Positions 12,383 to 51,843 of a DNA stretch of 64,000 nt are shown here, piece by piece; the stretch's first letter is position 1, and the number at the start of each line of letters is the position of its first letter. The translations under genes were made by a program, and so were the position numbers. This DNA is from Candidatus Saccharimonadia bacterium (GTDB lineage Bacteria; Patescibacteriota; Saccharimonadia; Saccharimonadales; 2-12-FULL-41-12): the NCBI GenBank assembly GCA_963717365.1, contig OY970327.1:991752-1055751 (forward strand), given 5' to 3'. The notes below the pieces were generated by a model. That model was given only the letters and a program-made list of their open reading frames with translations, searched no databases and was not told the DNA's origin.

Positions 12383-12385
12383 ATT

Positions 12386-12991: not shown

Positions 12992-13018
12992 TAACAATCG
13001 TAATTTATTAGAATTTAA

Positions 13019-13048
13019 GAAGCCCCGTTTTTCCGGGGCTTCTATTCT
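13019..13048. terminator. Bidirectional rho-independent terminator between convergent genes
   Basis: GAAGCCCCG-tttttc-CGGGGCTTC, a 9-bp GC-rich stem (13019-13042) followed by tattctt. An A-rich run sits on the other side. Confidence 0.7.
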
Positions 13049-13067
13049 TACGATTTGGACGAAGGAT

Positions 13068-13757
13068 TTATCGTGTTTTGGTGGTAGCAGGCGTAGTTGC
13101 TGCAGGAGTTTTGGTGGTAGCAGGCGTAGTTGCTGCAGGTGTCGTACTTTCGGTGTTAGTAGCACCATTTTGTTGGTTACAATCCTGGCCATTTGGATTA
13201 GCCTTAACGTACTCATCAACTGCTTTGGCTACTTGTCCATCGGTCTTTAGGTTTTCCCAGAAGATAACTTGATCTCGGTATATAACCATTGAATCTTCAG
13301 GACCATGGAGCTCACAACCCAGTTTTACTAATGATATATCGTTAGCTGCGTTGGCAGAATTTGCTTGATCTGGTTGAACTTGTTGATTCACCCGTAAGTA
13401 ATAGATGTTGTTCATATTCAAATAGCGTGAATTGATGTCGTTGATTTTACCAAAGTAAACCTGTCCGCCATTCAAGAAAACTGCCTGGAACTGGTTGCCT
13501 TTTACGGCGTCTAGTTCACTTGAAGCAACGTTTTTAGTAGAGCTCATTAACAATACTACTGCGATAAGCAATACGGTAACTACGCCTAGGAACCCGACAA
13601 AAAAGATTCTAGTCATTTTATCGTTACCATTATATTTTGAGGATTTTGGCCCGGAATTTTTCCCAGCAGCGACATGCGTATTAACCACACCGTCCTCTTG
13701 TGTTTGAGTTTGTGTATTTTGTTGAACTGGGCGTCCGCCTCGATTCATAAAATCCAT
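13068..13757 (-). CDS. Hypothetical membrane-anchored protein with Thr/Pro/Ala-rich repeat tail
   Basis: 229 aa. TM helix IFFVGFLGVVTVLLIAVVLLM. The C-terminus ends TTPAATTPATTKTPAATTPATTKTR. Confidence 0.5.
   Translation of the reverse strand: MDFMNRGGRPVQQNTQTQTQEDGVVNTHVAAGKNSGPKSSKYNGNDKMTRIFFVGFLGVVTVLLIAVVLLMSSTKNVASSELDAVKGNQFQAVFLNGGQVYFGKINDINSRYLNMNNIYYLRVNQQVQPDQANSANAANDISLVKLGCELHGPEDSMVIYRDQVIFWENLKTDGQVAKAVDEYVKANPNGQDCNQQNGATNTESTTPAATTPATTKTPAATTPATTKTR
13077..13139 (-). repeat. Perfect 30-nt unit repeated at 33-bp period inside the 3' end of CDS 13068..13757
   Basis: tttggtggtagcaggcgtagttgctgcagg occurs at 13077-13106 and again at 13110-13139. It is in frame, one 11-aa unit per copy. 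Confidence 0.85.
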
Positions 13758-13852
13758 TTATGTTTCCACCTTCGTTATTTTAGATACTGGATATCAGTGT
13801 AGCATAACCGTAATGATGTGCAAATATGAATGCCTAAAAATCATGACAGGGG

Positions 13853-13882
13853 TTGACAACTAAAAACGCTTGAGAGTATGGT
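13853..13882 (+). promoter_or_regulatory. Sigma70-like promoter for the small ORF at 13924
   Basis: TTGACA (13853-13858), an 18-nt spacer, then TATGGT (13877-13882). Confidence 0.45.
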
Positions 13883-13923
13883 AGGGGTACCATCAGTTAA
13901 CAACAGAGGGAGATGTAAACATA

Positions 13924-14127
13924 ATGGCAACATACAAGCACACTAACAGTAAAGGTGTAACGTACTACCTAAATTCGAAGAACGTTATACTTCGCGGCGG
14001 TAAAGAACAGACTATCTATTACTTCAGCAAAGATGATCGCAAAGACACCGGCGTTGATCTGCCATCAGGTAAAGTAGTCAACGAAAATCCACGCAACGGA
14101 TTTTTGACACTTAAAACCAAAGTTTAG
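13924..14127 (+). CDS. Small hypothetical protein (67 aa)
   Basis: It has its own promoter-like element upstream, GAGGGAG before the ATG, and a strong terminator downstream. Confidence 0.55.
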   Translation: MATYKHTNSKGVTYYLNSKNVILRGGKEQTIYYFSKDDRKDTGVDLPSGKVVNENPRNGFLTLKTKV

Positions 14128-14147
14128 AATTTCACTACATAATTTAT

Positions 14148-14186
14148 GCGCCCTAGGTATACTACCTGCGGGCGCTTAATTATTTT
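14148..14186 (+). terminator. Rho-independent terminator
   Basis: GCGCCCtAGGTAtacTACCTgcGGGCGC hairpin (14148-14175) followed by ttaattatttt. Confidence 0.65.
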
Positions 14187-14342
14187 ATAATTAAAAACAG
14201 TCACTATACACCTGAATCTTTGAATCCTCCAAAACTTTTGATAGATAGATCTGATTAACAATTAATGAAGATTGGCTAGCAAGTAAAGCGGGCTGTATTC
14301 AGGTGGGTTCAAGACTCAGGGGTTAAGAGGTAGAGGGTAGTA

Positions 14343-15140
14343 ATGGATAAGACTAAAGTAAAGGCATTCAAAAACAGAATGGCACAGCAGCCGATCGTTG
14401 AAGTCGTTGGTCTTACTAAGCAATATGGATCTAAAAAAGTAGTTAAAGATATCAGTTTTTCAGTTGAAGAAGGTGAGATTTTTGGTATTTTAGGGCCTAA
14501 TGGTGCTGGGAAAACTACAACACTTGAAATGATCGAAGCGTTGCGGCCAATTGACGGCGGCACCGCCATACTGGCCGGCTATGACGTGGCAACCTACCCT
14601 AATGAAGTAAAAGCCCTGATTGGGGTTCAGCCTCAAACACCGTCATTCGAAGAAAAAACTAAACTGACCGAGCTAATTGAATTTTTTTCATCCACCTATG
14701 GTGAAAAAGTTGACCCAAAGAAGTTTTTGGCCGAGGTACAACTCTTGGATAAAGCCGACAGCTACCCCGAACAATTATCGGGCGGCCAACGGCAACGATT
14801 TAGTATTGCTGCCGCGCTAGTACATGGGCCGAAGGTGTTCTTTCTTGACGAACCAACCACTGGACTTGACCCGCAAGCCAGGCGCAATTTATGGGACTTA
14901 ATTCGGGATGTCCGCGACAGGGGCGTAACAGTAATTATGACAACGCACTACATGGATGAGGCCGAGCTGCTCTGCGACCGGGTGGCAGTAATGGACAATG
15001 GCAGAATTATCGCGCTCGATACGCCAAAGAACCTGATTACGGCACTGCTTAAAAAAGGCTTTAAAAAAGACACTACCGTCCAGCAGGCTGACTTGGAAGA
15101 TGTGTTTATCGATTTAACCGGTAAAGAGCTAAGGGACTAG
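14343..15140 (+). CDS. ABC transporter ATP-binding protein (ABC-2/DrrA-like exporter)
   Basis: Walker A GPNGAGKTT, signature LSGGQRQR and Walker B VFFLDEPTTGLD. Confidence 0.9.
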   Translation: MDKTKVKAFKNRMAQQPIVEVVGLTKQYGSKKVVKDISFSVEEGEIFGILGPNGAGKTTTLEMIEALRPIDGGTAILAGYDVATYPNEVKALIGVQPQTPSFEEKTKLTELIEFFSSTYGEKVDPKKFLAEVQLLDKADSYPEQLSGGQRQRFSIAAALVHGPKVFFLDEPTTGLDPQARRNLWDLIRDVRDRGVTVIMTTHYMDEAELLCDRVAVMDNGRIIALDTPKNLITALLKKGFKKDTTVQQADLEDVFIDLTGKELRD

Positions 15141-30798: not shown

Positions 30799-32037
30799 TT
30801 ATAACTCCCTAATACTCCCAAAAGCCACGCGTTTCAGGATAATATCCTGCATATTTGCCATAGAAGCCGGTACCAGGGTAAATTCGCCGTATCTATCATT
30901 TATGTTATCGGCGGCGTAAGCCAGGGAGCGCGTATCAAGCCTAGTATCGTCGAATAGGCCTAATTGCCGCGGAGTAGCCGGCTGTAGGTAGTATACCGTG
31001 ACTCCTATATTGGTAACTCTAGCTGGTGGCGTAACCTGGTTCATAAGCTTTTGGGCGTGGATGTATATGTCTTGCGTGGAATAAATTGGGGACTTAGTTT
31101 TTTTGCCCTGCGACCAATACTGCCGATTTTCAAAACTTAACCATAAATGAATGCCCCACGCCGTGGAATCATGCTTCCTAAGCCTGCGTCCTGTTTTTTC
31201 GCATAACTTCATAAGTAGCCTGGAAAGCTTCTCTGGGTCGCTGGTTTTATCCCCTAATGCGTACTGTTGCCCGAAACTCTTTCGTCCAAAGTCTACGGCG
31301 TCTATTTCGTGGCCCCGCAGGCGCAAATACCAATAGTAGCCAACAATACTTTTAAAAACCTGTTTTCGGAGTACGTCCACATTAGCATCTAAAAACTGGA
31401 GGGGCGTATATATCCCCGCCATGTTTAGCCTAGCTTTATATCTGACATTTATACCTGGCAAATCAAGCAAGGTAAGGCTCTCATAAGTTTCCCGGATTGT
31501 TTTGCCGGTAATTATGTCCAAGCCATCCGGCTTATTAAGGCCAGCGGCTACTTTTGCTAGGAACCGGTTAGGGGCGATACCTATATTAACCGTAACGTAA
31601 TCACCTAACGCATTTTTTACATCTTGTTTTATCTCTTTTGCCACTTCCAATAGACTTTTACCCCGCTTAATTGCTAGAGAGTGGCTGAAGTCGATAACGA
31701 ATTCGTCTACTGATTTAGGTGTTACGGTATCCGTGTAGTTAAGAAGGAGTTTTTTAAATCGCCTGTGGGCATCAAAGTACTTTTCTGGGTCGGGAACCAT
31801 AATAATAGCTTCCCTGGAGAGCAGCCGGGCCTCTCTGACGTTTACACCTAATTTAATGCCCAATGCCTTGGCTTCATAAGAAGACGCGATTACCATGCCT
31901 CTAGGACTGTCATACGCGGCAATCGCTACCGGTTTATTGCGTATAAGCGGATTCGCCTGCTGTTCGATAATGGCAAAACAGCTGTTGAGGTCAATATGCA
32001 GTATCAAGGGGTCATTATAGTTAAGTGGCAAGTCCAT
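30799..32037 (-). CDS. Y-family DNA polymerase (DinB/UmuC-like)
   Basis: ILHIDLNSCFAIIEQQANPLIRNKPVAIAA...MVIASSYEAKALGIKLG, and later the little-finger region. Confidence 0.85.
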   Translation of the reverse strand: MDLPLNYNDPLILHIDLNSCFAIIEQQANPLIRNKPVAIAAYDSPRGMVIASSYEAKALGIKLGVNVREARLLSREAIIMVPDPEKYFDAHRRFKKLLLNYTDTVTPKSVDEFVIDFSHSLAIKRGKSLLEVAKEIKQDVKNALGDYVTVNIGIAPNRFLAKVAAGLNKPDGLDIITGKTIRETYESLTLLDLPGINVRYKARLNMAGIYTPLQFLDANVDVLRKQVFKSIVGYYWYLRLRGHEIDAVDFGRKSFGQQYALGDKTSDPEKLSRLLMKLCEKTGRRLRKHDSTAWGIHLWLSFENRQYWSQGKKTKSPIYSTQDIYIHAQKLMNQVTPPARVTNIGVTVYYLQPATPRQLGLFDDTRLDTRSLAYAADNINDRYGEFTLVPASMANMQDIILKRVAFGSIREL

Positions 32038-32287
32038 CGCTTACTGCCTCCAATGTCCAATGTAGATTACTGGTATTGAGGTTTAAACGAAACCATATAG
32101 TATTCTCCTTATCTACTAATTCATAAATATGGTGCAATACCCGCCCCTCATTAACTGTGTGATGATAGCCAATTTTACCTACGGTATAATCTTTATTTTG
32201 CCAGTATATTAGATGAGGTAGTGCTTTCCGTTTTTTCACTGAGTAGTACATTACTACTGATACTTCTTCGTTAATTTTCTCTCTCAT
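32021..32287 (-). CDS. Small protein translationally coupled to the Y-family polymerase (candidate accessory subunit)
   Basis: 88 aa from ATG 32287 (MREKINEE; AAGGGG 8 nt upstream), or 102 aa from 32329. Its 3' end overlaps the polymerase start by 17 nt. Confidence 0.45.
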   Translation of the reverse strand: MREKINEEVSVVMYYSVKKRKALPHLIYWQNKDYTVGKIGYHHTVNEGRVLHHIYELVDKENTIWFRLNLNTSNLHWTLEAVSDGLAT

Positions 32288-32312
32288 AGGAAGACCCCTT
32301 ATAATTATTAAT

Positions 32313-33005
32313 ATGTGCGGCAGATACACCCTCCATAAAAAGGCTGATAATATAGCAAAACGTTATAAGGTTGCTTCAATCCCTAAGGATATACATGAGA
32401 ATTACAACGTAGCGCCCGGACAGCGAATGCCGGTGATTACCGAAGACGAAGACGGGAAGCGAAAAATTGAAGTTATGAAATGGGGCTTAATCCCTGTATG
32501 GGCAAAGGACCCGAAAATAGGCTACAAACTCATTAACGCCCGGGATGACACCATCTTCGAAAAACCAATGTGGCGCAGTGTAATACTTAAAAAGCGGTGC
32601 CTTATTCCCGCTGATGGCTTTTTCGAATGGAAGAAGCTACCAGGAGGTACAAAAGTGCGAAAACAGCCGTTTTATATTCGCCCCAAACAACAAGACTTAT
32701 TTAGCTTTGCAGGCGTCTGGGAAACCTGGAAAGATGCTGAGGGCTTAGAATGGAAGACATATTCAATTATTACCACTGACCCCAATAAAGAAATGAAGCA
32801 GGTGCATAACCGCATGCCCGTAATTTTGCACCAAGATGATGAGTCCTCTTGGCTTTCGCCTTCTCATAATAATGACCGAGGTGCCATAGAGGCCCTACTG
32901 CGTCCCTGGGAAGACAATGGACTTGAACTTTTCGAGGTAAGCAGTGACGTGAACGCTTCCCGGAATAATGAGGCAAAGCTCATCTATCCGATTAACTCTC
33001 AGTGA
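32313..33005 (+). CDS. SOS-response-associated peptidase (SRAP/YedK-like abasic-site sensor)
   Basis: Begins MCGRYTL (Cys2), then NVAPGQ, MKWGLIP, INARDDT and NRMPVIL. TATAAT at 32300-32305 lies 7 nt before the ATG. Confidence 0.9.
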   Translation: MCGRYTLHKKADNIAKRYKVASIPKDIHENYNVAPGQRMPVITEDEDGKRKIEVMKWGLIPVWAKDPKIGYKLINARDDTIFEKPMWRSVILKKRCLIPADGFFEWKKLPGGTKVRKQPFYIRPKQQDLFSFAGVWETWKDAEGLEWKTYSIITTDPNKEMKQVHNRMPVILHQDDESSWLSPSHNNDRGAIEALLRPWEDNGLELFEVSSDVNASRNNEAKLIYPINSQ

Positions 33006-34271: not shown

Positions 34272-34472
34272 GTGTATACGAAATCACCCATTTCAGTTAA
34301 AGAGGCAAGACGGATTCTTGGAATCACTGGTAAGGGGTTATCAGACGATGCAATTAGGCAACTCATAGCACATATTGATGTATTAACAGATGTAGTAATT
34401 ACTCAATATAATGATTCCAAAAACCAGAGTTCTATTGATATTTTAAATGACGAAGCTCATACTAAAGAATAA
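34272..34472 (+). CDS. Small HTH-like protein (possible excisionase/RDF or regulator)
   Basis: 66 aa with a GTG start. SVKEARRILGITGKGLSDDAIRQLI resembles a helix-turn-helix. The stop lies 1 nt before the recombinase ATG. Confidence 0.4.
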   Translation: MYTKSPISVKEARRILGITGKGLSDDAIRQLIAHIDVLTDVVITQYNDSKNQSSIDILNDEAHTKE

Positions 34473-34473
34473 T

Positions 34474-36018
34474 ATGTTTAAAGCTGTAATATATACCCGC
34501 GTATCTACTGACGAACAAGCTAGGAATGGTCTAAGTCTAAAGGGTCAAGAGGACGCCACACGGGATTATTGTCTACGTGAAGGTATAGAGGTTGCTATGG
34601 TATTTTGTGATGCTGGAGAATCTGCAAAGACTGCTAATAGGCCACAATTAATAGCCTCAATGGCGTACTGTACCGAACATTACAAGGAAATTGACTTCTA
34701 TTTGGTGTGGAAGATGGATAGACTCGCTCGTATGGCCTACGACACAGCAGTAATTGATGCTAATTTACAAAAGCTTGGGATTCAGCTTCGTTCAGCTACG
34801 GAGCCAATTACAGATTCTCCTATCGGTTCTCTAACTAAAACCATGTTGGCAGGTTTCGCCCAGTTTGATAATGATGTACGCGCAGAACGTAGTAGTAGTG
34901 GGGTAAAACGGAGAATTGAAGAGGGTGGATGGCCTCATATGGCTCCGTTAGGCTACAGTAATTATACGGATAGTCTTAAGCGGCCAACACTTGTGCAGTC
35001 TAGCCAGGCACCACTTATTACAAGGTGGCTAAAGGAATACTTAAAAGGCGGCTATACGCAAAAGGCTTCAAATCAACTAGCTTGGGATATGGGGATACGC
35101 TCCAAACAGGGCACTCGATTGTCTAATCAGCAAACAATTAATATGCTTCGTAACCCAGTTTATGCAGGTCTGGTAAAATCTAAAATGATTGAATTTCCGG
35201 TTACAGGCCTACACACAGGGTTAATTAGTTACAAAGAACATGAAGCAATAATTAACAAATTGAATAAAAGAAAAAAACAGTTAACTGGGGTCAGTTCTTC
35301 GCAAGATTGGCCATTACGAGGAGGGTTTATAAAATGTGCGGAATGTAAAGAAAATATTACGGGAAGTTCGCCAAAGGGCCGAACAAAACACTACTCTATG
35401 TACCATTGCCCTAAATGCCGCACTAAAACGGTAGGCCATCGCGTGAGCGTATCAAAAGCAACCTTACATAACGAATTTGAAGCTTTATTAGCCTCTGTTA
35501 CGCCATCTGAGGCTGCATTAAAGCTATTTAAATCGCAAGTAATAAAGAAATGGCAGCTTTTAAATAGCGAGAAAAGATTACAGCAGCAGCAAATGCAACT
35601 TACGCTCGAAAAATTAAACCTTAGGAAACAAAAAGTAATTACACTTTTTGTTGATGGTAGCTTATCTTCGGAAGAAAAGGTGGAGCAATCAAATATTATC
35701 CAGTCAGAAATACTTAGAACCGAATTAAAATTAAATGAGGCAAAAGAAGCTGTAATAAGTTCAGATATTCTAATTGACTTCGGTATTAACATGATTCAAA
35801 ACGCTTCAAAACTATGGCGTATATCTAATGCATTAGAACGACAACGCCTACAATTAGCTATTTTTCCCGATGGACTTACATATAACTTTGTATCTGGGTT
35901 TGGAACCATTAAAACTAGTGAAATATATCAGTTAATTAGTCAATCGATATCAATAGATAATCAAAATTCAAGTATGGTGGGGGTGGCTGGAGTTGAACCA
36001 GCTACCAAGTGGTTATGA
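34474..36018 (+). CDS. Large serine recombinase (integrase type)
   Basis: AVIYTRVSTDEQARNGLSLKGQ (catalytic Ser), recombinase domain, Zn ribbon CAECKEN...YHCPKC and a coiled-coil tail. The last 44 nt overlap the tRNA-Met gene. Confidence 0.9.
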   Translation: MFKAVIYTRVSTDEQARNGLSLKGQEDATRDYCLREGIEVAMVFCDAGESAKTANRPQLIASMAYCTEHYKEIDFYLVWKMDRLARMAYDTAVIDANLQKLGIQLRSATEPITDSPIGSLTKTMLAGFAQFDNDVRAERSSSGVKRRIEEGGWPHMAPLGYSNYTDSLKRPTLVQSSQAPLITRWLKEYLKGGYTQKASNQLAWDMGIRSKQGTRLSNQQTINMLRNPVYAGLVKSKMIEFPVTGLHTGLISYKEHEAIINKLNKRKKQLTGVSSSQDWPLRGGFIKCAECKENITGSSPKGRTKHYSMYHCPKCRTKTVGHRVSVSKATLHNEFEALLASVTPSEAALKLFKSQVIKKWQLLNSEKRLQQQQMQLTLEKLNLRKQKVITLFVDGSLSSEEKVEQSNIIQSEILRTELKLNEAKEAVISSDILIDFGINMIQNASKLWRISNALERQRLQLAIFPDGLTYNFVSGFGTIKTSEIYQLISQSISIDNQNSSMVGVAGVEPATKWL

Positions 36019-36050
36019 GCCACCTGCTCTGACCGATGAGCTACACCCCC
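35975..36050 (-). tRNA. tRNA-Met (anticodon CAT; elongator Met versus Ile2 not distinguishable here), CCA encoded
   Basis: Hand-folded cloverleaf: acceptor GGGGGTG/CACCCCC, D arm GCTC-ATCGGTCA-GAGC, anticodon arm GGTGG-CTCATAA-CCACT, variable loop TGGTA, T arm GCTGG-TTCAACT-CCAGC, then A-CCA. Confidence 0.9.
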
Positions 36051-36126
36051 GCGGGCTATGGGTTAACAGATTGAGTATATCAGAAATCACGACACAGTTG
36101 GTATACTAGTGAGTGAGTATTCTGTT

Positions 36127-36558
36127 ATGTTACAAAATAAAAAAATTATTGTTGAAAAAATACGCCTATTTACTGATACGAGAGTATTAAGTTTACTGGC
36201 GTTTGGCGTGGTGGCACTGCTGGTGACCTGGAGCAGTATAGAGGTGGTCCAAACAAATTATGAACTAGAGAAAAAGATTTCGGTTGCACGCCAGGAAAAC
36301 GCCATCGCCCAACTTGAAAATGAGAATCTGAAGCTGAGGAATAAATATTATGAAAGCGCGCAGTACCTAGAGTTGACGACGCGGCGGCAGTTTGGCAAAG
36401 CCGGACCTGGCGAGAAGCTTTACACAGTTCCAGAGAGTGTAGCATTGGCAAAAACTATACCAAGCCAAGCTACTGAACAGGAGGCCGTAGAACAGGCAAA
36501 TACGCAGCCAAAGTATCAGCAGAACTTTGATGAATGGATGGACTTTCTATTTCAGTAA
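36127..36558 (+). CDS. Septum formation initiator (FtsB/DivIC-like)
   Basis: TM helix VLSLLAFGVVALLV followed by the coiled coil NAIAQLENENLKLRNKYYESAQYLELTTRRQFG. The track start is GTG 36109, which lies 1 nt after tggTATACT (36099-36107). Confidence 0.65.
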   Translation: MLQNKKIIVEKIRLFTDTRVLSLLAFGVVALLVTWSSIEVVQTNYELEKKISVARQENAIAQLENENLKLRNKYYESAQYLELTTRRQFGKAGPGEKLYTVPESVALAKTIPSQATEQEAVEQANTQPKYQQNFDEWMDFLFQ

Positions 36559-36597
36559 ATCGCCCGTTTAATAAATTCATAATATTTGATAGGTACA

Positions 36598-37329
36598 ATG
36601 AGTGTTATGAGTATGCGTAAACGACGGCTTGCTATTCTGCTAATTATGGCACTTATTGCTGCCGGGGGAGCATTATATGAAGACTTTCAATCCCGGCAAT
36701 TGGGCAGAAACCCAGTAATTCTACCAGCCATTGAAGTAGGTCAGGGCAGTGTTATCAGTTCTCCGGCAATTGATGTCCTAGCAGCGCTGCCAATAAAGGG
36801 CAAAGCGCCCAAAACTGGTTATACACGGGCCCAGTTTTCGGACGGTTGGGGCAATGCCGGCGGCTGTGACGTGCGCAATTTTATATTAAAGCGTGACATG
36901 ACGGAGGTAATCACCCAGTCGGGAACAGACTGTACGGTGGTGCAGGGGACATTATATGATCCATATACCAACAAAACAATTAGCTTTGTGCGTGGAACCG
37001 ATAGCAGTGACGACGTACAGATTGATCATGTGGTAGCTCTGTCAGATGCTTGGCAAACGGGAGCGCAGCAAATTTCATCAGAACAACGATATCTACTGGC
37101 GAATGACCAGCTTAATTTATTGGCGGTTGACGGGCCAACCAACCAAAAAAAGAGTGACGCTGATGCGGCTAGCTGGTTGCCCCCGGTCAAAGATTATCGT
37201 TGCCAGTATATTGCCCGGCGTCTGGCTGTAAAACAAAAATACCAACTATGGGTTACACAAGCCGAATTTGATGCCATGAAACGAGTACTATCAAATTGCC
37301 CGGACCAGGTTTTACCAATCGTTAATTAA
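36598..37329 (+). CDS. Secreted or anchored HNH-type nuclease (DUF1524 family)
   Basis: Signal/anchor LAILLIMALIAAGGALY; GYTRAQFSDGWGNAGGCDVRN; VQIDHVVALSDAWQTGA...GPTNQKKSDADAASWLP. Confidence 0.7.
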   Translation: MSVMSMRKRRLAILLIMALIAAGGALYEDFQSRQLGRNPVILPAIEVGQGSVISSPAIDVLAALPIKGKAPKTGYTRAQFSDGWGNAGGCDVRNFILKRDMTEVITQSGTDCTVVQGTLYDPYTNKTISFVRGTDSSDDVQIDHVVALSDAWQTGAQQISSEQRYLLANDQLNLLAVDGPTNQKKSDADAASWLPPVKDYRCQYIARRLAVKQKYQLWVTQAEFDAMKRVLSNCPDQVLPIVN

Positions 37330-37365
37330 TATATAGATAATCTATCGTCTGTATAGTCGGTCGGC

Positions 37366-38811
37366 ATGAAGGTGCATATCTCTTGGCTGATTGGCTGGGG
37401 CTGCTTGGGTTTTTTGGGCGGAGTAGGTCTGTGCGCCCTGATTAATGCATCATCATTTACAAACCCTATCTGGCTTATCGGCTCAATTATATTCATTGCC
37501 CTGACCATGGTATTTAGGTATCGCTGGTTAATTATACTGGTAGTCTCCGCCGGATGTGTGGCTGGCCTGTGGCGCGGCAGCATACTGCAGTCCGATCTTA
37601 GCGCCTACCAGCCATATTATGGAGCAGTTGTTAAGTTGAGTGGCCGGGTAGCACAAGACGCTTCGCTGGGCTCACAGGGCGATCTCCGGGTGAGTCTTAA
37701 GAATGTATCCATAGCCGGCTCGCCGCTAAAAGGACAAGCCTGGGTAAGTCTGCCAAAGGTAGATGTTAAACGCGGCGACATAATTACCGTTTCTGGCAAG
37801 CTTGGAGAAGGTTTTGGCAGTACCTCGGCTACTATCTACCGAGCAGAGATTATTGAAATTGTGCGTCCAAACCCAGGCGATGTTGCTCGCCGGGTCCGAG
37901 ACTGGTTTGGGGCTGGAGTACGGGCTACGGTGCCGGATCCGCAGGCTAGTTTAGGCCTAGGTTACTTGGTGGGTCAGAAAACTGCCTTGCCAAAGGATTT
38001 AGAAGAAGATATTAAAGCGGTGGGGCTGACACATGTGGTCGTTGCCAGTGGCTACAACCTAACGATACTGGTAGTCTTTTGTCGCCGGCTATTTTTAATG
38101 ATATCTAAGTATATCGCCACAGTTATGAGTACCTTGATGGTATTAGCGTTTATGTTGGTGACAGGCTTTAGCCCATCAATGTCTCGCGCCGGGCTGGTAG
38201 CACTGCTAGGCTTGTTGGTTTGGTACTACGGCCGAACGATACATCCGTTTGTTCTATTGTCATTCGCGGCCGCCCTGACAGTTGGTCTACAGCCATCCTA
38301 TATCTGGGGCGACCTTGGCTGGTATCTCTCATTCACGGCTTTTATTGGAGTTATTGTGTTATCACCGCTAATTCACCACTATTTTTGGGGTACCGCTAAG
38401 CGTCCTGGCATGCTCCGAGAGTTATTCATTAGTACGCTGGCCGCTCAAATTGTGACCACACCGCTAATATTAATGTCCTTTGGCCTATTTTCGGTCTATG
38501 CGCTGTTGGCTAATATCTTAGTTTTGCCACTCGTACCATTAGCCATGCTCTGTACATTTTTTGCCGGAATAGCCGGTCTCATCGCGCCGGGCTTTATTGG
38601 ATTTCTGGCATTTCCGGCTACAGTAATCCTGACTTATTCCACAACAGTCATTCAGTACGTTGCAAATCTGCCGAACGCACAAACCGAGCTCATATTTAAT
38701 CCTCCGTTAATGATCGCCAGTTACATTGGGTTAGGCGTAGCAATTACATATTTAAAAAGGAGAACCAACCATGACTTTCGCGACCCTAATTCTACAAATG
38801 AGACGTACTAG
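37366..38811 (+). CDS. comEC: ComEC/Rec2 DNA-uptake channel, no C-terminal metallo-beta-lactamase domain
   Basis: 481 aa. DUF4131-like N-terminus (VVKLSGRVAQD...GDIITVSGKL) and competence domain (LGLGYLVGQKTALPKDLEEDIKAVGLTHVVVASGYNL). The protein ends after the last TM helices. Confidence 0.85.
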   Translation: MKVHISWLIGWGCLGFLGGVGLCALINASSFTNPIWLIGSIIFIALTMVFRYRWLIILVVSAGCVAGLWRGSILQSDLSAYQPYYGAVVKLSGRVAQDASLGSQGDLRVSLKNVSIAGSPLKGQAWVSLPKVDVKRGDIITVSGKLGEGFGSTSATIYRAEIIEIVRPNPGDVARRVRDWFGAGVRATVPDPQASLGLGYLVGQKTALPKDLEEDIKAVGLTHVVVASGYNLTILVVFCRRLFLMISKYIATVMSTLMVLAFMLVTGFSPSMSRAGLVALLGLLVWYYGRTIHPFVLLSFAAALTVGLQPSYIWGDLGWYLSFTAFIGVIVLSPLIHHYFWGTAKRPGMLRELFISTLAAQIVTTPLILMSFGLFSVYALLANILVLPLVPLAMLCTFFAGIAGLIAPGFIGFLAFPATVILTYSTTVIQYVANLPNAQTELIFNPPLMIASYIGLGVAITYLKRRTNHDFRDPNSTNETY

Positions 38812-40318
38812 TTTAGTAATACTCGCAAGTCTATTACTAATGCCGGGGTCCAGCCAAGCCCTATCAGCGCTAGGTGATACTCTTTCTGCTGCCGTAGTTA
38901 TATACCAGATGCAAACTGGTGCTCCTGCGTCAGCATCTCAGGAATATATAGCCCTTTACAACAATACCGATGCTCCAGTTGATATAACCAACTGGTGTGT
39001 AGTCTATGCTAGCTCCAGTGATATTACCCAGACTCAGCTTAGCTGCGCGAAGCCGTCATCTGATCCGGCCGCACGGATATTCTTAAAACCATACAGTGCG
39101 TGGCTGCTGGCTACGTCGGAGTTTGCCTTGACCCATCCGGCATTTACGCCAGACAGTACGTTTAATGGTGGGTTGGCATCGACGTCAGGGCACATTAAGC
39201 TGCTCGATGCCGGTCAAAAACTTGTTGATTCAGTTGGCTGGGGTTCGGCCATACACCCAGAAGGTTCAGTCGCTATTGCTCCGGCCAGTGGCAAGTTACT
39301 GCAACGGCACGGGCAAATCCCAGAAACGCTCCAGGATTTAAACAATAACGCCGTCGATTTTTATCAAACTGAATTAGTGTTTCCAGTTGGCGGGAATACC
39401 TACGAAGAGATACTATTGCCAGAAACGTGTTCCGCAAATGATAGTACTTGTGCGAGCAATTTGAATTCAAGATTAGTACTGTCAGAACTCCTGCCAGATG
39501 CAACCGGTGCGGATGCTGGCCAGGAGTTCATTGAGCTCTATAACCCCACTGATTCAGCAGTATCGTCGTCAGGTTATTCGCTGCAATTGGGTCCTAGTTT
39601 TGCAAAAAACTATCCTCTACCAGATAGTCTAATTGAAGCTAAGAGCTACCGAGCATTTAGTGATGTTGAAACTGGTCTGACGCTCCCAAATACCAGCGCA
39701 TCTCTCAGACTGGTGGCTCCGGACGGCATTACGTCGAGCGAGACTACCTATAGCGAACTTGAGGAAGCCACCAGCATTGCATACGTTAATGGCAGCTGGC
39801 AGCAAACCTATCAACCAACGCCAGGTACTGAAAATACTTTGGTTGCCGTAAAACCATGTCCAGAAAATCAGACTCGTAATCCAGACAGTGGTCAATGTAA
39901 ACAGAATACCCTCACAGCTAGTCTAGCCGCGTGTAATGAAGGTCAGGTTCGTAATATTGAAACGGGTCGCTGTCGCAATATCGTAAGTACTGTTGCCGCC
40001 ACAGCATGCAAAGCAGGTCAGCAAAAGAACCCGGCCACGAATCGATGCATCAATATTCCGACCGTCGCGGAGACAAAAGCCTGTCCAGCCGGGCAAGAAC
40101 GCAACCCAGAAACTGGCCGCTGCAAAAAGATTTCGGCTATTACCGCATCAGGCAGTAACAGCGTTAAAGATGTCCCCGGTTCACTTATTGGCAGTAGCAA
40201 AACTTGGCTATTGGTTGGCGTAGCAGCGGCAGGAACCATTGGCTACGCGCTATATGAATGGCGTCAGGAGATATTTGGTTTTACGATCTCTCTAAAAAAC
40301 AAACTGGTTCCTAGCTAA
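38771..40318 (+). CDS. Surface protein with two lamin-tail domains, four Cys-loop repeats and a C-terminal TM anchor
   Basis: LTD signatures QEYIALYNNTDAPVDITNW and QEFIELYNPTDSAVSSSGY. The C-terminal helix is WLLVGVAAAGTIGYALY. Overlaps comEC by 41 nt. Confidence 0.75.
   Translation: MTFATLILQMRRTSLVILASLLLMPGSSQALSALGDTLSAAVVIYQMQTGAPASASQEYIALYNNTDAPVDITNWCVVYASSSDITQTQLSCAKPSSDPAARIFLKPYSAWLLATSEFALTHPAFTPDSTFNGGLASTSGHIKLLDAGQKLVDSVGWGSAIHPEGSVAIAPASGKLLQRHGQIPETLQDLNNNAVDFYQTELVFPVGGNTYEEILLPETCSANDSTCASNLNSRLVLSELLPDATGADAGQEFIELYNPTDSAVSSSGYSLQLGPSFAKNYPLPDSLIEAKSYRAFSDVETGLTLPNTSASLRLVAPDGITSSETTYSELEEATSIAYVNGSWQQTYQPTPGTENTLVAVKPCPENQTRNPDSGQCKQNTLTASLAACNEGQVRNIETGRCRNIVSTVAATACKAGQQKNPATNRCINIPTVAETKACPAGQERNPETGRCKKISAITASGSNSVKDVPGSLIGSSKTWLLVGVAAAGTIGYALYEWRQEIFGFTISLKNKLVPS
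39857..40126 (+). repeat. Four tandem 25-aa coding repeats (15-aa Cys loop + 10-aa linker)
   Basis: CPENQTRNPDSGQCK, CNEGQVRNIETGRCR, CKAGQQKNPATNRCI and CPAGQERNPETGRCK, each followed by a linker of about 10 aa. Confidence 0.85.
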
Positions 40319-40333
40319 TTGGTTCTTAATGCT

Positions 40334-40363
40334 TTAGACATATATTTTGCTAACGGTTATAAT
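40334..40363 (+). promoter_or_regulatory. Sigma70-like promoter, leaderless-type spacing to ATG 40373
   Basis: TTAGAC (40334-40339), an 18-nt spacer, then TATAAT (40358-40363). The ATG lies 9 nt downstream. Confidence 0.45.
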
Positions 40364-40372
40364 ATAAACGAA

Positions 40373-40744
40373 ATGAGAAAGGGAAAACAAACAGCTCAAA
40401 TGGATGCCGCACCCCCGGATACTGCTCCGGTCACTGAATCGTATGATGGCGCAGAAGGCATCCGCCAACAACAAGTTGAAAGAGCAGCAGAAGGCATAGC
40501 CGCAATATCACTATTTGCACGTCACGGAGATACGGTTGTGAATATGAGAGGAGTAAGCGGCAAGTTGAAAGATATAGCCAAGTTTTGCCCTAGGGATCTG
40601 AGTGAGGAGCCACCAGAAAAAGTACATAACTGGACCGTAAATATTTTAACGGAATCAGGACACGAATTAAGTGAGGAAGAAAAAATTTTTACTGCACAGC
40701 CAAAGCCTATGGATAATTCCGAAAACGACGAAAAAAAAAATTAG
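40373..40744 (+). CDS. Hypothetical protein; upstream segment of a probable frameshift-joined gene
   Basis: 123 aa from ATG 40373 (the track start 40319 is TTG and overlaps the promoter). It ends ENDEKKN* immediately after the A10 run at 40731-40740. Confidence 0.45.
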   Translation: MRKGKQTAQMDAAPPDTAPVTESYDGAEGIRQQQVERAAEGIAAISLFARHGDTVVNMRGVSGKLKDIAKFCPRDLSEEPPEKVHNWTVNILTESGHELSEEEKIFTAQPKPMDNSENDEKKN

Positions 40745-40917
40745 AAAAACCACCAGAAACTCAAAATTTACAGCAATCTAAAAAACCTGCAAAGACTGAA
40801 ACCAAAGCTTTAATCGCAGAAAAAGCAGCCCAGACTTCTAAAGAAAATCGCTCTAAGCCAATTGCCATAAATCAAGATAGATTAAAACAGGAGCAGCCAC
40901 CTAAGCCCATCAAAGAA

Positions 40918-41838
40918 TTGCGTCATGTTGAGCCAGCAGCCTACTTTGTAAAAGAACAGGCTAAATCGTCGCTGTCTAAAAATACAATAGTGTCAAAAAA
41001 AGAGACTCCGAAAGAAATTAAAAAAAGTCCTGGCTTAGTTATCGAGTACAAGCAAACAGTTGTTCTTAAACCGTACATGACCAATATTCATGAGAATACA
41101 CTACACAGTACCTCAGCTAATTTGATCGCAGAGCCTGTGATAATCGAGTTACCACGCGCGCAGGAGACAACAATAGTGACAGTTCTAAACACACCGGCGA
41201 TAGAAGTAGAACAATCCGAGCGTGAACCTACGATCCCAGAGGATGAAATTATTACTGAAGCCACTGAGACTGATATTCGAACGATGATCCATACAGTACA
41301 AGATAAAATTGCAGAGCTTGATCCGATAGCAACAGAATTAATAGAGCGATTGATAGAAGAGATAGCGACGATATTAGCAGGATATGATGCAACTAATCTA
41401 CTTGCTGAAACTGACAAAAATGATGTAGATACTGTGGAGAACGAAATAGTAACTATAAATGAGCTTGCCAAAGAAGTAGGCGTTATCGCCCCAAAAGATC
41501 CAATAGAAGTATTGGTAGGAGTCCTAATAATGCATACGACTACCGCTGAAGATTTAGAAGAACTCGGATCAAGTGATACGGAACAGAAATTAATAGTAGC
41601 CATCACCCAGATAGCTGAATTGTTAGATATGAAGATAGACTCGCCACAGATAAGAAGGCTGGCGTCCAAATTGATTGAGTCCAAAGAAGTCCGGGGTATG
41701 CTTATTCAAGAATCTCAAGAAGATCGTGGCACGCATGAGGTACTGCAGCATTTTGGCACTGTCCTGAGGGGCGTAGAGGATATTTTAGAGCCCGTGCACG
41801 CGTTATTAGGCCGAATAGTTTTAGCCACGCACATGTAA
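40918..41838 (+). CDS. Acidic hypothetical protein; downstream segment (frame open from 40717, no convincing own start)
   Basis: The track start is TTG 40918 without an SD. The same frame is open back to 40717 and overlaps the A10 run, so a -1 shift from the upstream ORF would read through. Confidence 0.45.
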   Translation: MRHVEPAAYFVKEQAKSSLSKNTIVSKKETPKEIKKSPGLVIEYKQTVVLKPYMTNIHENTLHSTSANLIAEPVIIELPRAQETTIVTVLNTPAIEVEQSEREPTIPEDEIITEATETDIRTMIHTVQDKIAELDPIATELIERLIEEIATILAGYDATNLLAETDKNDVDTVENEIVTINELAKEVGVIAPKDPIEVLVGVLIMHTTTAEDLEELGSSDTEQKLIVAITQIAELLDMKIDSPQIRRLASKLIESKEVRGMLIQESQEDRGTHEVLQHFGTVLRGVEDILEPVHALLGRIVLATHM

Positions 41839-41867
41839 CAGTCGTCGCTTCCAAGAGCGGCGTAGGG

Positions 41868-42242
41868 CTATTCCTTTGTTTTTAGTAATTCCTTGACGGC
41901 TTTTACTAGTTGGGCGGGAGCAGCACCGGCTTTGAGCATGTATTTGCTAGCGCCCAGCTTTTTAATTCGATCACGGGTTTTTGCGTCGGATAAATTACTC
42001 AGTACCAACACTTTCACGTTCGGATAATTTTTCTTCATATCAACAGTCTCTAGGAATTCAATACCTCCCATAACTGGCATAAGTACATCTAATAGAATTA
42101 GGTCTGGCTTAATGACACCCAACTGTTTAATAGCTGCTTTGCCGTTAGCAGCTTGATAGACGGTAAATTTCTCTAGAGTGAACAGCATAACATATACATC
42201 CCGCAGGGCTGTTTCATCTTCAACAATTAATATTTTTTTCAT
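41868..42242 (-). CDS. Single-domain response regulator (CheY-like receiver only)
   Basis: 124 aa. KILIVEDE, phospho-acceptor context DLILLDVLMPVMGG, and a late K in KYMLKAG. No output domain. Confidence 0.85.
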   Translation of the reverse strand: MKKILIVEDETALRDVYVMLFTLEKFTVYQAANGKAAIKQLGVIKPDLILLDVLMPVMGGIEFLETVDMKKNYPNVKVLVLSNLSDAKTRDRIKKLGASKYMLKAGAAPAQLVKAVKELLKTKE

Positions 42243-42259
42243 AACAGGTAATTATTCCC

Positions 42260-43384
42260 TTATGGATTGTTCATAGGGATTGTAACAGTAAATGTGGTGC
42301 CCTTGTTTAATTTTGAGCTAATTGTAATAGTGCCACCATGTAAATCTAGTAGTTTTTTTGCCCAGTATAAACCCAAGCCAGTACCACTGGCGGAAGATTG
42401 CGGGTTATGGATACGCGAAAACTTTTGGAATAAACGGGGAATATCCCGCTCGGCAATACCAATTCCCTGATCTGCAACGGTGATAATTAAATGATCAGTA
42501 GCGCCGCTTACAGAGACAGTTACTTTACTCTTGTCTGGACTATACTTAAGAGCATTGCTGAGTAAGTTCTCAAAGACCATGCGCATGTGCAACGGATCAA
42601 CTGTACAGAGCACCGAAGACTCCTCTGAATTACATGAAAGTGTTAAGCCCCGCTCTTTATATTTTGCTGTATGACTAGCAACAATATCACTGAGAAGTTC
42701 TACGAAATCAATTTCTTTGCGGACCGCGATAATTTTATTGGCATCGGCTTGGGCTACCTTGAGTAGATCATTAATAATATGTAATTGCGTGTCGTTATAG
42801 GTGTAGGCTTTCTGTAGCATTTCAGACTGCTCTTTAGTTAATCTTCCAACATAGCCTTCTATTAGCATGCCCATATACTGTTTAACGACTGTAGCTGGTG
42901 TACGCAACTGATGGGACGCGATTGAAATAAATTCGTCCTTAGCATTTTCTAGCTCAACTTCTTTGGTAATATCACGGAAGACCTCAATAGTACCGAAGGG
43001 CTCACCGTTAAGAATTAAGGGGGAAACAGTCAACGCTACTGGAATTCTATCGCCGTCTTTTTTTCGGTAATAAAGTCGTTCAAATACTGGCTTACCACTC
43101 AGAATTGCCTCGGTAATAGGTCGGTCAATATTTGATATTACACGGCCAGTTTCATCCTCTGCCACAATAGTTTCCGGATACCATTTTCCGACTACCTCTT
43201 TTGCCTTAAAGCCGAGGATGTCGAGTGCAACCGTGTTGATTCGGGCTATATTACCTCGTTCGTCGGTTGTTATAGCACCCTCACCGATGCTAAAAAAAAG
43301 TGCGTCTGCCTCAGCATTTCTAAGTCTTAATGATTGAGAGTCAACATCAGCCGGCAATTTCTGTGAAGTTCTTGCCCGGGCCAT
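42260..43384 (-). CDS. Soluble PAS-domain sensor histidine kinase
   Basis: PAS (FFSIGEGAITTDERGNI...), H-box FISIASHQLRTP, N-box NALKYS, G-boxes DQGIGI and GTGLGL. No TM segment. Confidence 0.85.
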   Translation of the reverse strand: MARARTSQKLPADVDSQSLRLRNAEADALFFSIGEGAITTDERGNIARINTVALDILGFKAKEVVGKWYPETIVAEDETGRVISNIDRPITEAILSGKPVFERLYYRKKDGDRIPVALTVSPLILNGEPFGTIEVFRDITKEVELENAKDEFISIASHQLRTPATVVKQYMGMLIEGYVGRLTKEQSEMLQKAYTYNDTQLHIINDLLKVAQADANKIIAVRKEIDFVELLSDIVASHTAKYKERGLTLSCNSEESSVLCTVDPLHMRMVFENLLSNALKYSPDKSKVTVSVSGATDHLIITVADQGIGIAERDIPRLFQKFSRIHNPQSSASGTGLGLYWAKKLLDLHGGTITISSKLNKGTTFTVTIPMNNP

Positions 43385-50626: not shown

Positions 50627-51103
50627 ATGAACAAACGTACACTTATTATCATTGTCGTAATAGTAATCGCCATAGCGGGCGGAGTCATATATTTGCTTGC
50701 TCGCCCCGAACGCCAGGCGTCACTAGAAACCACAAGCGACAGTGCTGCACCGCTGGCTAGTAAATCTTCTGACTCGGCTACTGCCCAGTCTGGTAAAGGC
50801 GTCTATATTGACTATGAAGAAGATATTGTTGCTAAAACCGCTGGTACCAAACTGTTATTTTTCCACGCGCCGTGGTGTCCACAGTGCCGCGATCTGGAAA
50901 CTGATATAAAAAAACAAGGCGTCCCAGACGGAGTGGCAATTATTAAAGTTGATTATGATACGAATCAAGCTTTACGAAAAAAATATGGTGTCACGCTACA
51001 AACGACATTTGTAAAAGTTAATGACAACGGAGATTTAGAGAAAAAATTTGTAGCTTACGATGATCCTGTATTCCGTTCAGTTTCACAAAATCTCTTACAA
51101 TAA
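50627..51103 (+). CDS. Membrane-anchored thioredoxin-family protein
   Basis: N-terminal helix LIIIVVIVIAIAGGVIYLL and redox motif FHAPWCPQCR. TATAAT at 50614-50619 lies 7 nt before the ATG. Confidence 0.75.
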   Translation: MNKRTLIIIVVIVIAIAGGVIYLLARPERQASLETTSDSAAPLASKSSDSATAQSGKGVYIDYEEDIVAKTAGTKLLFFHAPWCPQCRDLETDIKKQGVPDGVAIIKVDYDTNQALRKKYGVTLQTTFVKVNDNGDLEKKFVAYDDPVFRSVSQNLLQ

Positions 51104-51843
51104 TGACGCTCTTAATTTTATCGTTTATTGCAGGTGTCCTAACGGTAGCGGCTCCATGTATTTTGCCGTTGTTGCCGGTCATTATCGGCGGCTCTCTTAT
51201 TGGAAACGAAAAAGAAAAACAGGATTCACAGGGCCTTAGGCCATTGATAATAGTAGGAAGCTTGGTTGTTTCGATAGTTATTTTCACCCTACTTATCAAG
51301 GCATCAACTGCTTTGCTGGGAGTACCACAAACTGTCTGGCAAGTTATTTCAGGCGGCATTGTGGTATTGCTTGGCTTGCATTTTGTATTTCTGGGTTTTT
51401 GGGAAAAACTTTCTGTTAAATCTGGTCTTTTTACAAACTCTAATTTATTACTAGGCAAAGCATATAAACAATCAGGGACATGGGGCGCAGTACTTATTGG
51501 CGCCGCCCTTGGACCAGTATTTAGTAGTTGCAGCCCAACATACGCGCTGATTGTTGCCACTGTCTTGCCGGCTTCGTTCGCATATGGATTTCTATATCTG
51601 ATGGCTTACGCCATTGGTATGGGTGCTACGCTTTTGCTGGTGGCATATTTTGGACAAGTAGTCCTGGCCCGATTACGTTGGTTAAGTAATCCAAACGGAT
51701 GGTTTAAGCGTATTGTTGGAGTTCTATTTATAATCGTTGGTTTTATGGTGATCATTGGACTAGATAAAAAATTGCAGGCGTATGTGTTAGAGCAAGGCTT
51801 ATATGATCCTGTTAGCAATCTAGAAAATCGTCTTAAACGGTAA
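51103..51843 (+). CDS. ccdA: CcdA/DsbD-type thiol:disulfide electron-transfer membrane protein
   Basis: Cys-containing helices AAPCILPLLPVIIG and FSSCSPTYALI. The start overlaps the thioredoxin stop (TAATG). Confidence 0.8.
   Translation: MTLLILSFIAGVLTVAAPCILPLLPVIIGGSLIGNEKEKQDSQGLRPLIIVGSLVVSIVIFTLLIKASTALLGVPQTVWQVISGGIVVLLGLHFVFLGFWEKLSVKSGLFTNSNLLLGKAYKQSGTWGAVLIGAALGPVFSSCSPTYALIVATVLPASFAYGFLYLMAYAIGMGATLLLVAYFGQVVLARLRWLSNPNGWFKRIVGVLFIIVGFMVIIGLDKKLQAYVLEQGLYDPVSNLENRLKR

Follow-up and report, generated by a model that had tools for sequence, protein, structure and literature searches.

Membrane-bound extracytoplasmic nucleases, such as EndA of Streptococcus pneumoniae and NucA of Bacillus subtilis, process transforming DNA beside ComEC, and what becomes of the second strand in ComEC proteins that harbour no metallo-beta-lactamase (MBL) domain has been named as an open question (PMC8579336). 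This MBL-less kind accounts for about half of the ComEC proteins, including essentially all those of the Candidate Phyla Radiation (CPR)/Patescibacteria. The ComEC-MBL fusion is essentially absent from the CPR, having been found in six genomes only (Meheust et al. 2019, PMC6744442), and the profile of DUF4131 plus Competence ('DC') occurs in 14 of 51 known competent strains (Pimentel & Zhang 2018). Moreover, only 31% of CPR genomes were seen to have a ComEA, from which another mode of DNA binding was suggested (PMC6744442). That study thus already covers both points, the shortness of ComEC and the rarity of ComEA in the CPR, and the MBL-less form is not presented as new here. The present analysis concerns a locus of a Candidatus Saccharimonadia bacterium in which such a comEC lies between a gene for a predicted membrane-tethered nuclease of the DUF1524 family and a gene for a surface protein with two lamin-tail domains (LTDs). 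The locus is located on a stretch of 64,000 nucleotides (GenBank assembly GCA_963717365.1, contig OY970327.1, positions 991,752 to 1,055,751 of the forward strand), which represents about 5% of the 1.19-Mb genome and is hereafter called the window.

Southlakia epibionticum is naturally transformable, and deletion of its comEC (SEML1_0777), the product of which shares the MBL-less architecture with the window ComEC, abolishes transformation (Wang et al. 2023, PMC10633639). No ComEA, K02237, PF12836 or SLBB entries were found in the annotation tables of this organism. Since S. epibionticum is transformable without a recognizable ComEA or MBL domain, the gap in the uptake machinery is real.

LTDs are known from other proteins that process extracellular DNA. 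ExeM (Shewanella) and Xds (Vibrio cholerae) each combine an LTD, an oligonucleotide/oligosaccharide-binding (OB) fold and an EEP nuclease, MBL and LTD are joined in the haloarchaeal 'ComA'/Hlac_1867, LTD and thermonuclease in Hvo_1477, and a protein of Izemoplasma harbours nucleic-acid-binding, nuclease and LTD domains. Deletion of the LTD from Xds leaves activity and membrane localization intact. ExeM without its LTD degrades DNA only modestly more slowly in vitro, and the domain can be dispensed with in vivo.

Three consecutive genes with overlapping or tight junctions

The nuclease, comEC and LTD genes are three consecutive plus-strand open reading frames (ORFs) at 36613..40318 of the window, as read from its ORFs. 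The original prediction for this DNA had described three same-strand genes with tight or overlapping junctions, two LTDs, four Cys-loops and a C-terminal transmembrane (TM) helix, all of which were recovered from the ORFs, Pfam and AlphaFold2 (AF2) models. It had placed the nuclease gene at 36598..37329; the ORF, the anchor and the motif were found as described, 36598 being one of three possible starts, of which the public gene call uses 36613. The original description was thus confirmed throughout. The nearest relatives are all metagenome-assembled genomes of Candidatus Saccharimonadales/Saccharibacteria.

The overlap between comEC and the LTD gene is exactly 41 nt, the length originally given, and the ATG of the LTD gene is preceded, 7 nt upstream, by an AAGGAG Shine-Dalgarno sequence inside comEC. 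In the loci of the four closest species (L001 to L004) this start overlap is conserved, measuring 38 or 41 nt. Because the Shine-Dalgarno of the LTD gene sits in comEC and the 41-nt overlap is kept in the closest species, comEC and the LTD gene are, by these sequence features, translationally coupled. Scanning of 35900..41900 for promoters and terminators returned counts that did not differ from those of shuffled sequence, with no convincing internal terminator in that interval, which is no more than compatible with a single transcript. Among the window proteins, no ComEA/HhH domain was detected, consistent with the earlier statement that the window carries no comEA, and neither were MBL-fold, pilin, ComFC or DprA domains; as the window covers about 5% of the genome, these absences carry little weight.

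Linkage of the trio across Saccharimonadia

Synteny was surveyed in 80 loci from GTDB species-representative genomes, which were fetched with the ComEC alignment with up to 10 kb on each side and annotated by tblastn, ORF calling and phmmer. Loci were informative for the LTD gene with at least 4.5 kb downstream (57 loci), for the nuclease with at least 1.5 kb upstream (65 loci), and for both in 52 cases. Nearly all of them fall into two architectures: (i) type A, with the order nuclease-comEC-LTD as in the window; (ii) type B, which prevails among other Saccharimonadia (for example, L019 at 10001..14568), with the order comEC-(type IV pilin)-yebC-LTD-ruvC, where the gene in between encodes a 240-aa YebC/PmpR and that after the LTD gene a 158-aa RuvC. 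Both yebC and ruvC are absent from the window and are therefore separated from the comEC-LTD pair in this genome.

Counted on the same strand, an LTD gene follows comEC at a distance of at most four genes in 51 of 57 loci, being directly adjacent in 17 of the 57, and a nuclease gene was found at most two genes upstream of comEC in 25 of 65. Among the 52 loci with both flanks informative, 19 harbour the full trio, 28 the LTD gene only (all with yebC), one the nuclease only without the LTD gene, and four neither; type IV pilin genes are present in the cluster in 9 of the 52. The nuclease-comEC-LTD synteny is thus conserved. The nuclease gene itself adjoins comEC in no more than about 40% of the sampled lineages. 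Elsewhere in the surveyed loci, neither the LTD gene nor the nuclease gene has a second paralogue.

In a neighbour-joining tree of ComEC, loci of the yebC type group together in one large clade and those with the trio make up a deep grade, with one locus (L045) showing the order Nuc-ComEC-LTD-YebC-RuvC, which is intermediate between types A and B. The LTD gene stayed near comEC through the rearrangement to comEC-(pilin)-yebC-LTD-ruvC. For 18 strictly contiguous trios, the upstream neighbour came from 14 unrelated families and the downstream neighbour from 17, yet the gap between nuclease and comEC ranged only from -85 to +86 nt and that between comEC and the LTD gene from -58 to +116 nt. As the internal gaps stay small while nearly all flanking genes differ, the trio is, judged from comparative gene order, an evolutionarily maintained operon; its recurrence in dozens of species-level genomes places the arrangement far beyond chance.

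Two features of the arrangement were observed in passing. The LTD surface-protein gene of type B is inserted into an otherwise classical yebC-ruvC pair. Moreover, in one subclade (L008, L033 and L048) a sugar-phosphate metabolism gene lies between comEC and the LTD gene, its 317-327-aa product resembling, by eye only, class 1 fructose-1,6-bisphosphatase; in L033 the inserted gene is followed by one for a 357-aa protein that is aldolase-like, again by eye only, and no LTD gene is found within 10 kb.

A short ComEC as the clade norm

Pfam identified DUF4131 and Competence in the window ComEC and no other domain. The Competence domain (PF03772) matched at E=1.8e-40 over profile positions 2-269 of 270, and DUF4131 (PF13567) at E=4.8e-09 (36.6 bits against a cut-off of 31.6). 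The protein passes NCBIfam TIGR00360 (ComEC_N-term; 59.3 bits against a cut-off of 36.5) but fails the full-length equivalog TIGR00361 (ComEC_Rec2; 38 bits against a cut-off of 190), of which it covers model positions 124-382 of 663. No Lactamase_B match was found in it or in any other window protein, and the C-terminal MBL nuclease of the canonical DCL type is missing, so that Pfam and NCBIfam confirm the claim of a ComEC without the MBL domain. The OB region is basic (net charge +6, pI 9.8), and the invariant H-x4-S-G-Y-N motif region of the ComEC alignment is kept.

Could the short form be an artefact or a pseudogene, with a frameshift by which the MBL domain was lost or came to be encoded nearby? 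Its chance is practically negligible. The best 120 homologues (48-100% identity, 425-530 aa) harbour PF13567 and PF03772 only, all 120 being without MBL. The DNA 3' of comEC, where a remnant would be sought, is filled by an intact LTD ORF that is conserved and has a Shine-Dalgarno of its own, MBL fusions are all but missing from the CPR (PMC6744442), and a ComEC of the same short architecture works in transformation (PMC10633639). Truncation by a frameshift was therefore rejected, and the 481-aa ComEC is, by comparison with its homologues, a native architecture and the norm of its clade. It is a member of the DC type that includes SEML1_0777, Helicobacter pylori ComEC and the CPR ComEC family, with the same two domains, length class and H-x4-S-G-Y-N region; it differs from them only in the gene neighbourhood, with a nuclease upstream and a coupled LTD gene downstream.

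A predicted membrane-tethered His-Me nuclease

Residues 100-233 of the product of the first gene match Pfam GmrSD_C/DUF1524 (PF07510) at E=1.6e-20. Its N-terminus consists of a basic stretch followed by one hydrophobic helix, as seen by hydropathy and AF2, and an RRRR-plus-hydrophobic segment is kept at this position in 39 orthologues. An alignment of these 39 sequences revealed as invariant D138 and H139 (in a VQ-x-DH motif), N164, D165, L167, K180, D182 and D184 together with a WLP motif, and four cysteines (C85, C107, C197 and C229), with N168 and N177 conserved in at least 90%. The AF2 model (mean pLDDT, predicted local distance difference test score, of 85) features a TM helix (2-29) and a disordered linker (30-47), followed by the globular part (about 50-238). 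In the latter, the strand 135-139 ends at H139 and is followed by a long helical omega-loop, the strand 169-173 and the helix 174-178, which carries N177. This strand/strand/helix order fits the beta-beta-alpha-metal topology in the model, and the nuclease shows the hallmarks of DUF1524 His-Me proteins, with a putative catalytic His that closes beta-strand 1 and with Asn residues as putative metal ligands.

The predicted TM helix, linker and disulfide-containing globular domain would place the protein in the class of membrane-anchored extracytoplasmic nucleases to which EndA and NucA belong. The extracytoplasmic location is supported by the four invariant cysteines, together with the N-terminal TM helix and the linker. 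Thus, with moderate-to-high confidence, the sequence and the model point to a membrane-tethered extracytoplasmic DNase. The nuclease differs from EndA in that EndA, also a His-Me finger protein, belongs to group 5 (DRGH-motif Endonuclease_NS), whereas the window nuclease belongs to group 3 (DUF1524/GmrSD_C); moreover, the ComEC proteins of S. pneumoniae and B. subtilis keep the MBL domain, unlike that of the window. The genes endA and nucA are not known to be adjacent to comEC.

Searching the nuclease and the LTD protein by sequence against the PDB returned no meaningful matches. By Foldseek, the five best, though weak, PDB matches of the nuclease model were the periplasmic nucleases Vvn and endonuclease I. 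Like Vvn, EndoI and V. cholerae Dns, the window nuclease would be a secreted, disulfide-stabilized, non-specific His-Me enzyme, but those proteins are soluble and of Pfam Endonuclease_1, whereas it is predicted to be TM-anchored. Its DUF1524 His-Me catalytic domain is shared with GmrSD, SspE and BrxU of type IV restriction and defence, from which the Pfam family takes the name GmrSD_C; however, the DUF262/ParB-like N-terminal domain of the GmrSD type is replaced by a TM anchor and the four invariant cysteines. A GmrSD-like defence nuclease was rejected on the missing DUF262, the extracytoplasmic topology and the absence of any match of the nuclease to PADLOC.

An acidic surface protein with two LTDs and a cysteine-rich stalk

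Two stretches of the 515-aa LTD protein match Pfam PF00932 (E=1.7e-19). Its AF2 model has a mean pLDDT of 83, with both beta-sandwich domains above 94, and from the N- to the C-terminus it features a signal peptide, the two beta-sandwiches, four short beta-hairpins, a low-confidence spacer, the TM helix 476-496 and an amphipathic cytoplasmic helix (498-512). Foldseek matched the sandwiches to the immunoglobulin (Ig)-like folds of lamin A/C, B1 and B2 (prob 1.00; TMt 0.6-0.72), so that the modelling proposed in the original prediction yielded the Ig-like LTD fold. The hairpins correspond to C-x12-C repeats that start at residues 363, 388, 413 and 438, with a period of 25 aa, and were modelled as paired short strands. 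Their pattern is C-x2-G-Q-x-R-N-P-x-T-[GN]-x-C and their consensus ends in [GN]-R-C, with three to five copies per protein and a weak match to Pfam TNFR_nem in orthologues. Scanned against Pfam at E<=5, the LTD protein showed the LTD plus weak TNFR_nem and EGF_4 only, with no HhH (PF12836) and no SLBB; the protein thus lacks the HhH of the ComEA type.

Conservation and charge were determined in 50 orthologues. The net charge ranged from -2 to -22 (mean -8) for LTD1 and from -5 to -18 (mean -10) for LTD2, and the values of the window protein are listed in Table 1. For the Cys-repeat stalk, the net charge spanned -4 to +18, therefore its basicity is not conserved, and the stalk as a DNA-binding element was rejected. 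At the end of the TM helix, no variation was seen at Y492, E496 and R498, and W497 is shared by at least 90% of the sequences. The cytoplasmic end of the helix thus bears the almost unvarying motif G-Y-A-x-[YW]-E-W-R and is followed by the amphipathic helix (residues 476-515, 40196..40318 for the whole segment). This juxtamembrane YEWR motif could be a partner-binding or sorting signal; we recognize in it no known signal.

Essentiality of the LTD orthologue in S. epibionticum

The comEC locus of S. epibionticum (SEML1_0777-0774) is of type B (PMC10633639, Table S1). Its published transposon insertion sequencing (Tn-seq) calls, given here as P0/P1/P2 (equal to T0/T1/T2) with NE for non-essential, GD for growth defect and ES for essential, are NE/NE/NE for ComEC (SEML1_0777) and for YebC (SEML1_0776), NE/ES/ES for the LTD protein (SEML1_0775), and NE/GD/ES for both RuvC (SEML1_0774) and a PBP-like transglycosylase-domain protein (SEML1_0773; all PMC10633639). 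Insertions in SEML1_0775 fell from 30 to 6 to 1 and normalized reads from 451 to 104 to 13, and the gene was assigned to the class II essential genes and to a core, Patescibacteria-enriched family (PMC10633639). By contrast, comFC and dprA were, like comEC, non-essential, as was a DUF1524 nuclease at an unrelated locus, SEML1_0519 (NE/NE/NE), which was assigned by ECOD to the His-Me finger (e1oupA1; PMC10633639).

Since SEML1_0775 is essential but comEC is not, at least one task of the LTD protein lies outside DNA uptake, unless insertions exert a polar effect on ruvC, the PBP gene and ruvA, which is possible because the LTD stop lies 5 nt from the start of ruvC. Moreover, the dispensability of the com pathway argues, at least for co-culture, against DNA uptake as a nutrient route that supports growth, and the authors concluded that the com system serves transformation, not nucleotide supply (PMC10633639).

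A proposed role in transformation and its alternatives

From gene content, domain architecture, predicted topology and conserved linkage, we infer a nuclease activity, a physical or functional coupling among the three products and a role for the LTD protein. The trio is tentatively read as a co-transcribed, maintained operon that encodes the envelope-side part of the natural-transformation machinery of Saccharimonadales, with a rough probability of 0.45 given the sequence and model evidence. DNA would probably be delivered by type IV pili, whose pilin genes join the cluster in some loci as described above. A His-Me nuclease held at the outer face of the membrane by its N-terminal TM helix, with a flexible linker of about 20-30 residues and two disulfides, may cut the incoming duplex and/or degrade the non-transported strand beside the channel, by analogy with EndA and NucA. 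Such a task would be that of the MBL domain in B. subtilis ComEC, of EndA in S. pneumoniae and of NucA in B. subtilis. ComEC would then engage the strand through its basic OB fold and import single-stranded DNA. For the LTD protein, two acidic Ig-like LTDs would be held off the membrane on a stalk of four disulfide-locked hairpins; outside the cytoplasm it may serve the uptake site as a partner or scaffold, for instance, by bridging the wall or by offering a dock for the pilus, the nuclease or the OB fold. It probably has an additional, ComEC-independent role in the envelope and is not expected to be an electrostatic DNA receptor of the ComEA kind. The notion that a nuclease acts in trans for an MBL-less ComEC, made in the original prediction, is plausible by analogy, the mechanism being reasonable because of the precedents of EndA and NucA (PMC8579336).

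Several observations weigh against this role. Linkage of genes alone is no proof of a physical complex, and the nuclease is not beside comEC in about 60% of the lineages sampled, nor in S. epibionticum, where SEML1_0519 is unlinked. The Foldseek figures of the nuclease are weak (prob 0.75-0.92, E 0.06-0.15, TM about 0.35), and the proteins to which they point, Vvn and EndoI, lower transformation, as does Dns (PMC5714182). A simple role in DNA uptake is also difficult to reconcile with the acidity of both LTDs in 50 of 50 orthologues, with the non-conserved charge of the stalk and with an LTD orthologue that is essential where comEC, comFC and dprA are dispensable.

The main alternative is that the genes are linked without mechanistic coupling, by shared regulation or operon history only, the nuclease being a general secreted or surface DNase like Dns, Vvn and EndoI (for turnover of extracellular DNA, degradation of biofilm or host DNA, or limiting of uptake) and the LTD protein an essential envelope or host-interaction protein. 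Such an explanation is possible but on balance unlikely. It agrees with the separation of the nuclease from comEC in most sampled lineages, with the transformation-reducing activity of the periplasmic nucleases of closest fold, and with the very wide distribution of signal-bearing DUF1524 proteins (7984 matches among 8000 candidates); the best structural neighbours of SEML1_0519 are likewise generic DUF1524 or unannotated proteins outside its own genome (PMC10633639, Table S2). The fitness phenotype of the LTD orthologue, a member of a Patescibacteria-enriched core family, is unlike that of the com genes, and the type B LTD gene lies between the housekeeping genes yebC and ruvC. However, mere history would hardly keep a trio contiguous, with overlapping or near-zero gaps, among neighbours that are unrelated upstream (14 of 18) and downstream (17 of 18), nor would it readily explain why the LTD gene tracks comEC through two architectures, why type IV pilin genes join the cluster in 9 of 52 loci, why comEC and the LTD gene are translationally coupled, and why LTDs recur with DNA-processing modules in unrelated organisms.

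A more specific form of the transformation role, which we regard as unlikely, would see in the trio a split version of the ExeM/Xds design of LTD, OB fold and nuclease, where the DUF1524 nuclease removes the non-transforming strand for an MBL-less ComEC and ComEC has in the LTD protein an obligate partner for the capture or guiding of DNA, or for the docking of a DNA-laden type IV pilus, in ComEA-less Patescibacteria. The parallel is suggestive, as an analogy: the same three module types are found at the surface with a membrane anchor in both, but ExeM/Xds-type proteins fuse them in one chain with EEP, MBL or SNase nucleases, whereas in the trio each has its own gene, the nuclease being of the His-Me kind and the OB fold part of the DNA channel. 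If true, this reading would define a new accessory set for bacterial transformation.

The original prediction took the LTD protein for a surface DNA receptor in place of ComEA and the trio for a DNA-scavenging machine of a nucleotide-auxotrophic episymbiont. ComEA (HhH), H. pylori ComH and the LTD protein would share the hypothesized slot of an extracytoplasmic, membrane-associated partner upstream of ComEC, and ComH is a non-ComEA receptor paired with an MBL-less ComEC (cited in PMC8579336). The rarity of ComEA in the CPR and its absence from the window and from the S. epibionticum annotation tables, the strong linkage of the LTD gene to comEC, and the co-occurrence of LTDs with nucleases and OB folds elsewhere all speak for a replacement. 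Yet it is distinctly unlikely. Unlike ComEA, the protein has no HhH or SLBB and its globular domains are acidic, both LTDs being net negative in every orthologue; the LTD is dispensable for DNA degradation and localization in Xds and a modest contributor in ExeM; and if the protein acted solely through the dispensable ComEC pathway, its orthologue would not be expected to be essential. The scavenging rationale is contradicted by the Tn-seq data of S. epibionticum, where comEC, comFC, dprA and the DUF1524 nuclease are all non-essential (PMC10633639). As the com pathway is dispensable and the LTD orthologue is not, scavenging of nucleotides is unlikely, and service to ComEC is probably not the sole task of the LTD protein. 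The transformation-machinery reading, in which the LTD protein is a scaffold with a further envelope role, is preferred.

Targeted full-text literature search found no description of the nuclease-comEC-LTD operon, in line with the original statement that no functional description of the trio was known, nor of the wider comEC-LTD linkage or of the architecture of two acidic LTDs, Cys-stalk and YEWR motif. The locus is apparently a real, undescribed variant of competence machinery. It offers two linkage-conserved candidates for the missing second-strand and ComEA functions, and a new genomic context for the recurring association of LTDs with extracellular DNA-processing proteins. Because natural transformation is now the main genetic tool in this phylum (PMC10633639), the proposed roles are directly testable.

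Features of the locus and its surroundings

Table 1. Coordinates of the nuclease, comEC and LTD genes and of their features in the window.
Feature	Position	Strand	Details and basis
DUF1524/GmrSD_C nuclease	36613..37329	+	238 aa; public gene call
Alternative nuclease starts	36598 (ATG), 36586 (TTG)	+	upstream of 36613 (ATG)
N-terminal signal-anchor TM helix of nuclease, residues 4-25	36622..36687	+	hydropathy scan
Nuclease DHVVALSDAW motif	37024..37053	+	sequence
Nuclease Asp138-His139 codons; putative general-base His at end of beta-strand 1	37024..37029	+	invariance in alignment
ComEC/Rec2, 'DC' type	37366..38811	+	481 aa; Pfam, NCBIfam
ComEC DUF4131 (PF13567), residues 34-147	37465..37806	+	Pfam
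ComEC Competence (PF03772), residues 201-465	37966..38760	+	Pfam
Shine-Dalgarno AAAAAGGAGAA of LTD gene, within comEC 3' end	38754..38764	+	read from sequence
LTD protein, type-I membrane protein	38771..40318	+	515 aa; Pfam PF00932, AF2
LTD domain 1, residues ~40-200	38888..39370	+	net charge -7; Pfam, charge calculation, AF2
LTD domain 2, residues ~236-355	39476..39835	+	net charge -12; Pfam, charge calculation, AF2
Four Cys-loop repeats, 25-aa period	39857..40123	+	net charge +7; regex, charge calculation, AF2
C-terminal TM helix of LTD protein, residues 476-496, then amphipathic cytoplasmic helix	40196..40258	+	AF2

To the left of the operon, a 66-aa ORF and, after it, the gene for a large serine recombinase (34447..36018; with Resolvase, Recombinase and Zn-ribbon domains) lie in a region (34272..36050) where the GC content drops to 0.39, and the recombinase gene runs into the 3' end of a tRNA-Met on the minus strand (35975..36050). 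Four other loci (L003, L007, L054 and L075) keep the order tRNA-Met-DivIC-nuclease-comEC-LTD without the recombinase. The region thus looks like a genome-specific element integrated at tRNA-Met, directly left of the operon. Further upstream, a minus-strand gene for a Y-family polymerase (IMS/IMS_C) adjoins one for an SOS-response-associated peptidase (SRAP) at 30799..33005, so that genes of DNA-damage tolerance are found near the competence cluster.

Downstream, the LTD gene is followed at 40319..41838 by genes for two acidic hypothetical proteins of 141 and 306 aa, which have no Pfam or PADLOC match and are kept only in the closest relatives L001, L002 and L004. Since the first of these ORFs contains, close to its 5' end, a strong sigma-70-like site (40335..40363; 11 of 12 matches), its real start may lie further downstream. 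Beyond them, just downstream of the operon, a receiver-only response regulator and a PAS histidine kinase are encoded on the minus strand (41868..43384). Homologues of the regulator and kinase are found within a few kb of the trio in six loci (L001, L016, L045, L007, L010 and L006), and the pair could regulate the cluster. Finally, a thioredoxin and a DsbD/CcdA-type membrane protein are encoded as a pair at 50627..51843, which is consistent with the kind of extracytoplasmic disulfide system that would be needed by the nuclease, with its four invariant cysteines, and by the LTD stalk, with eight.

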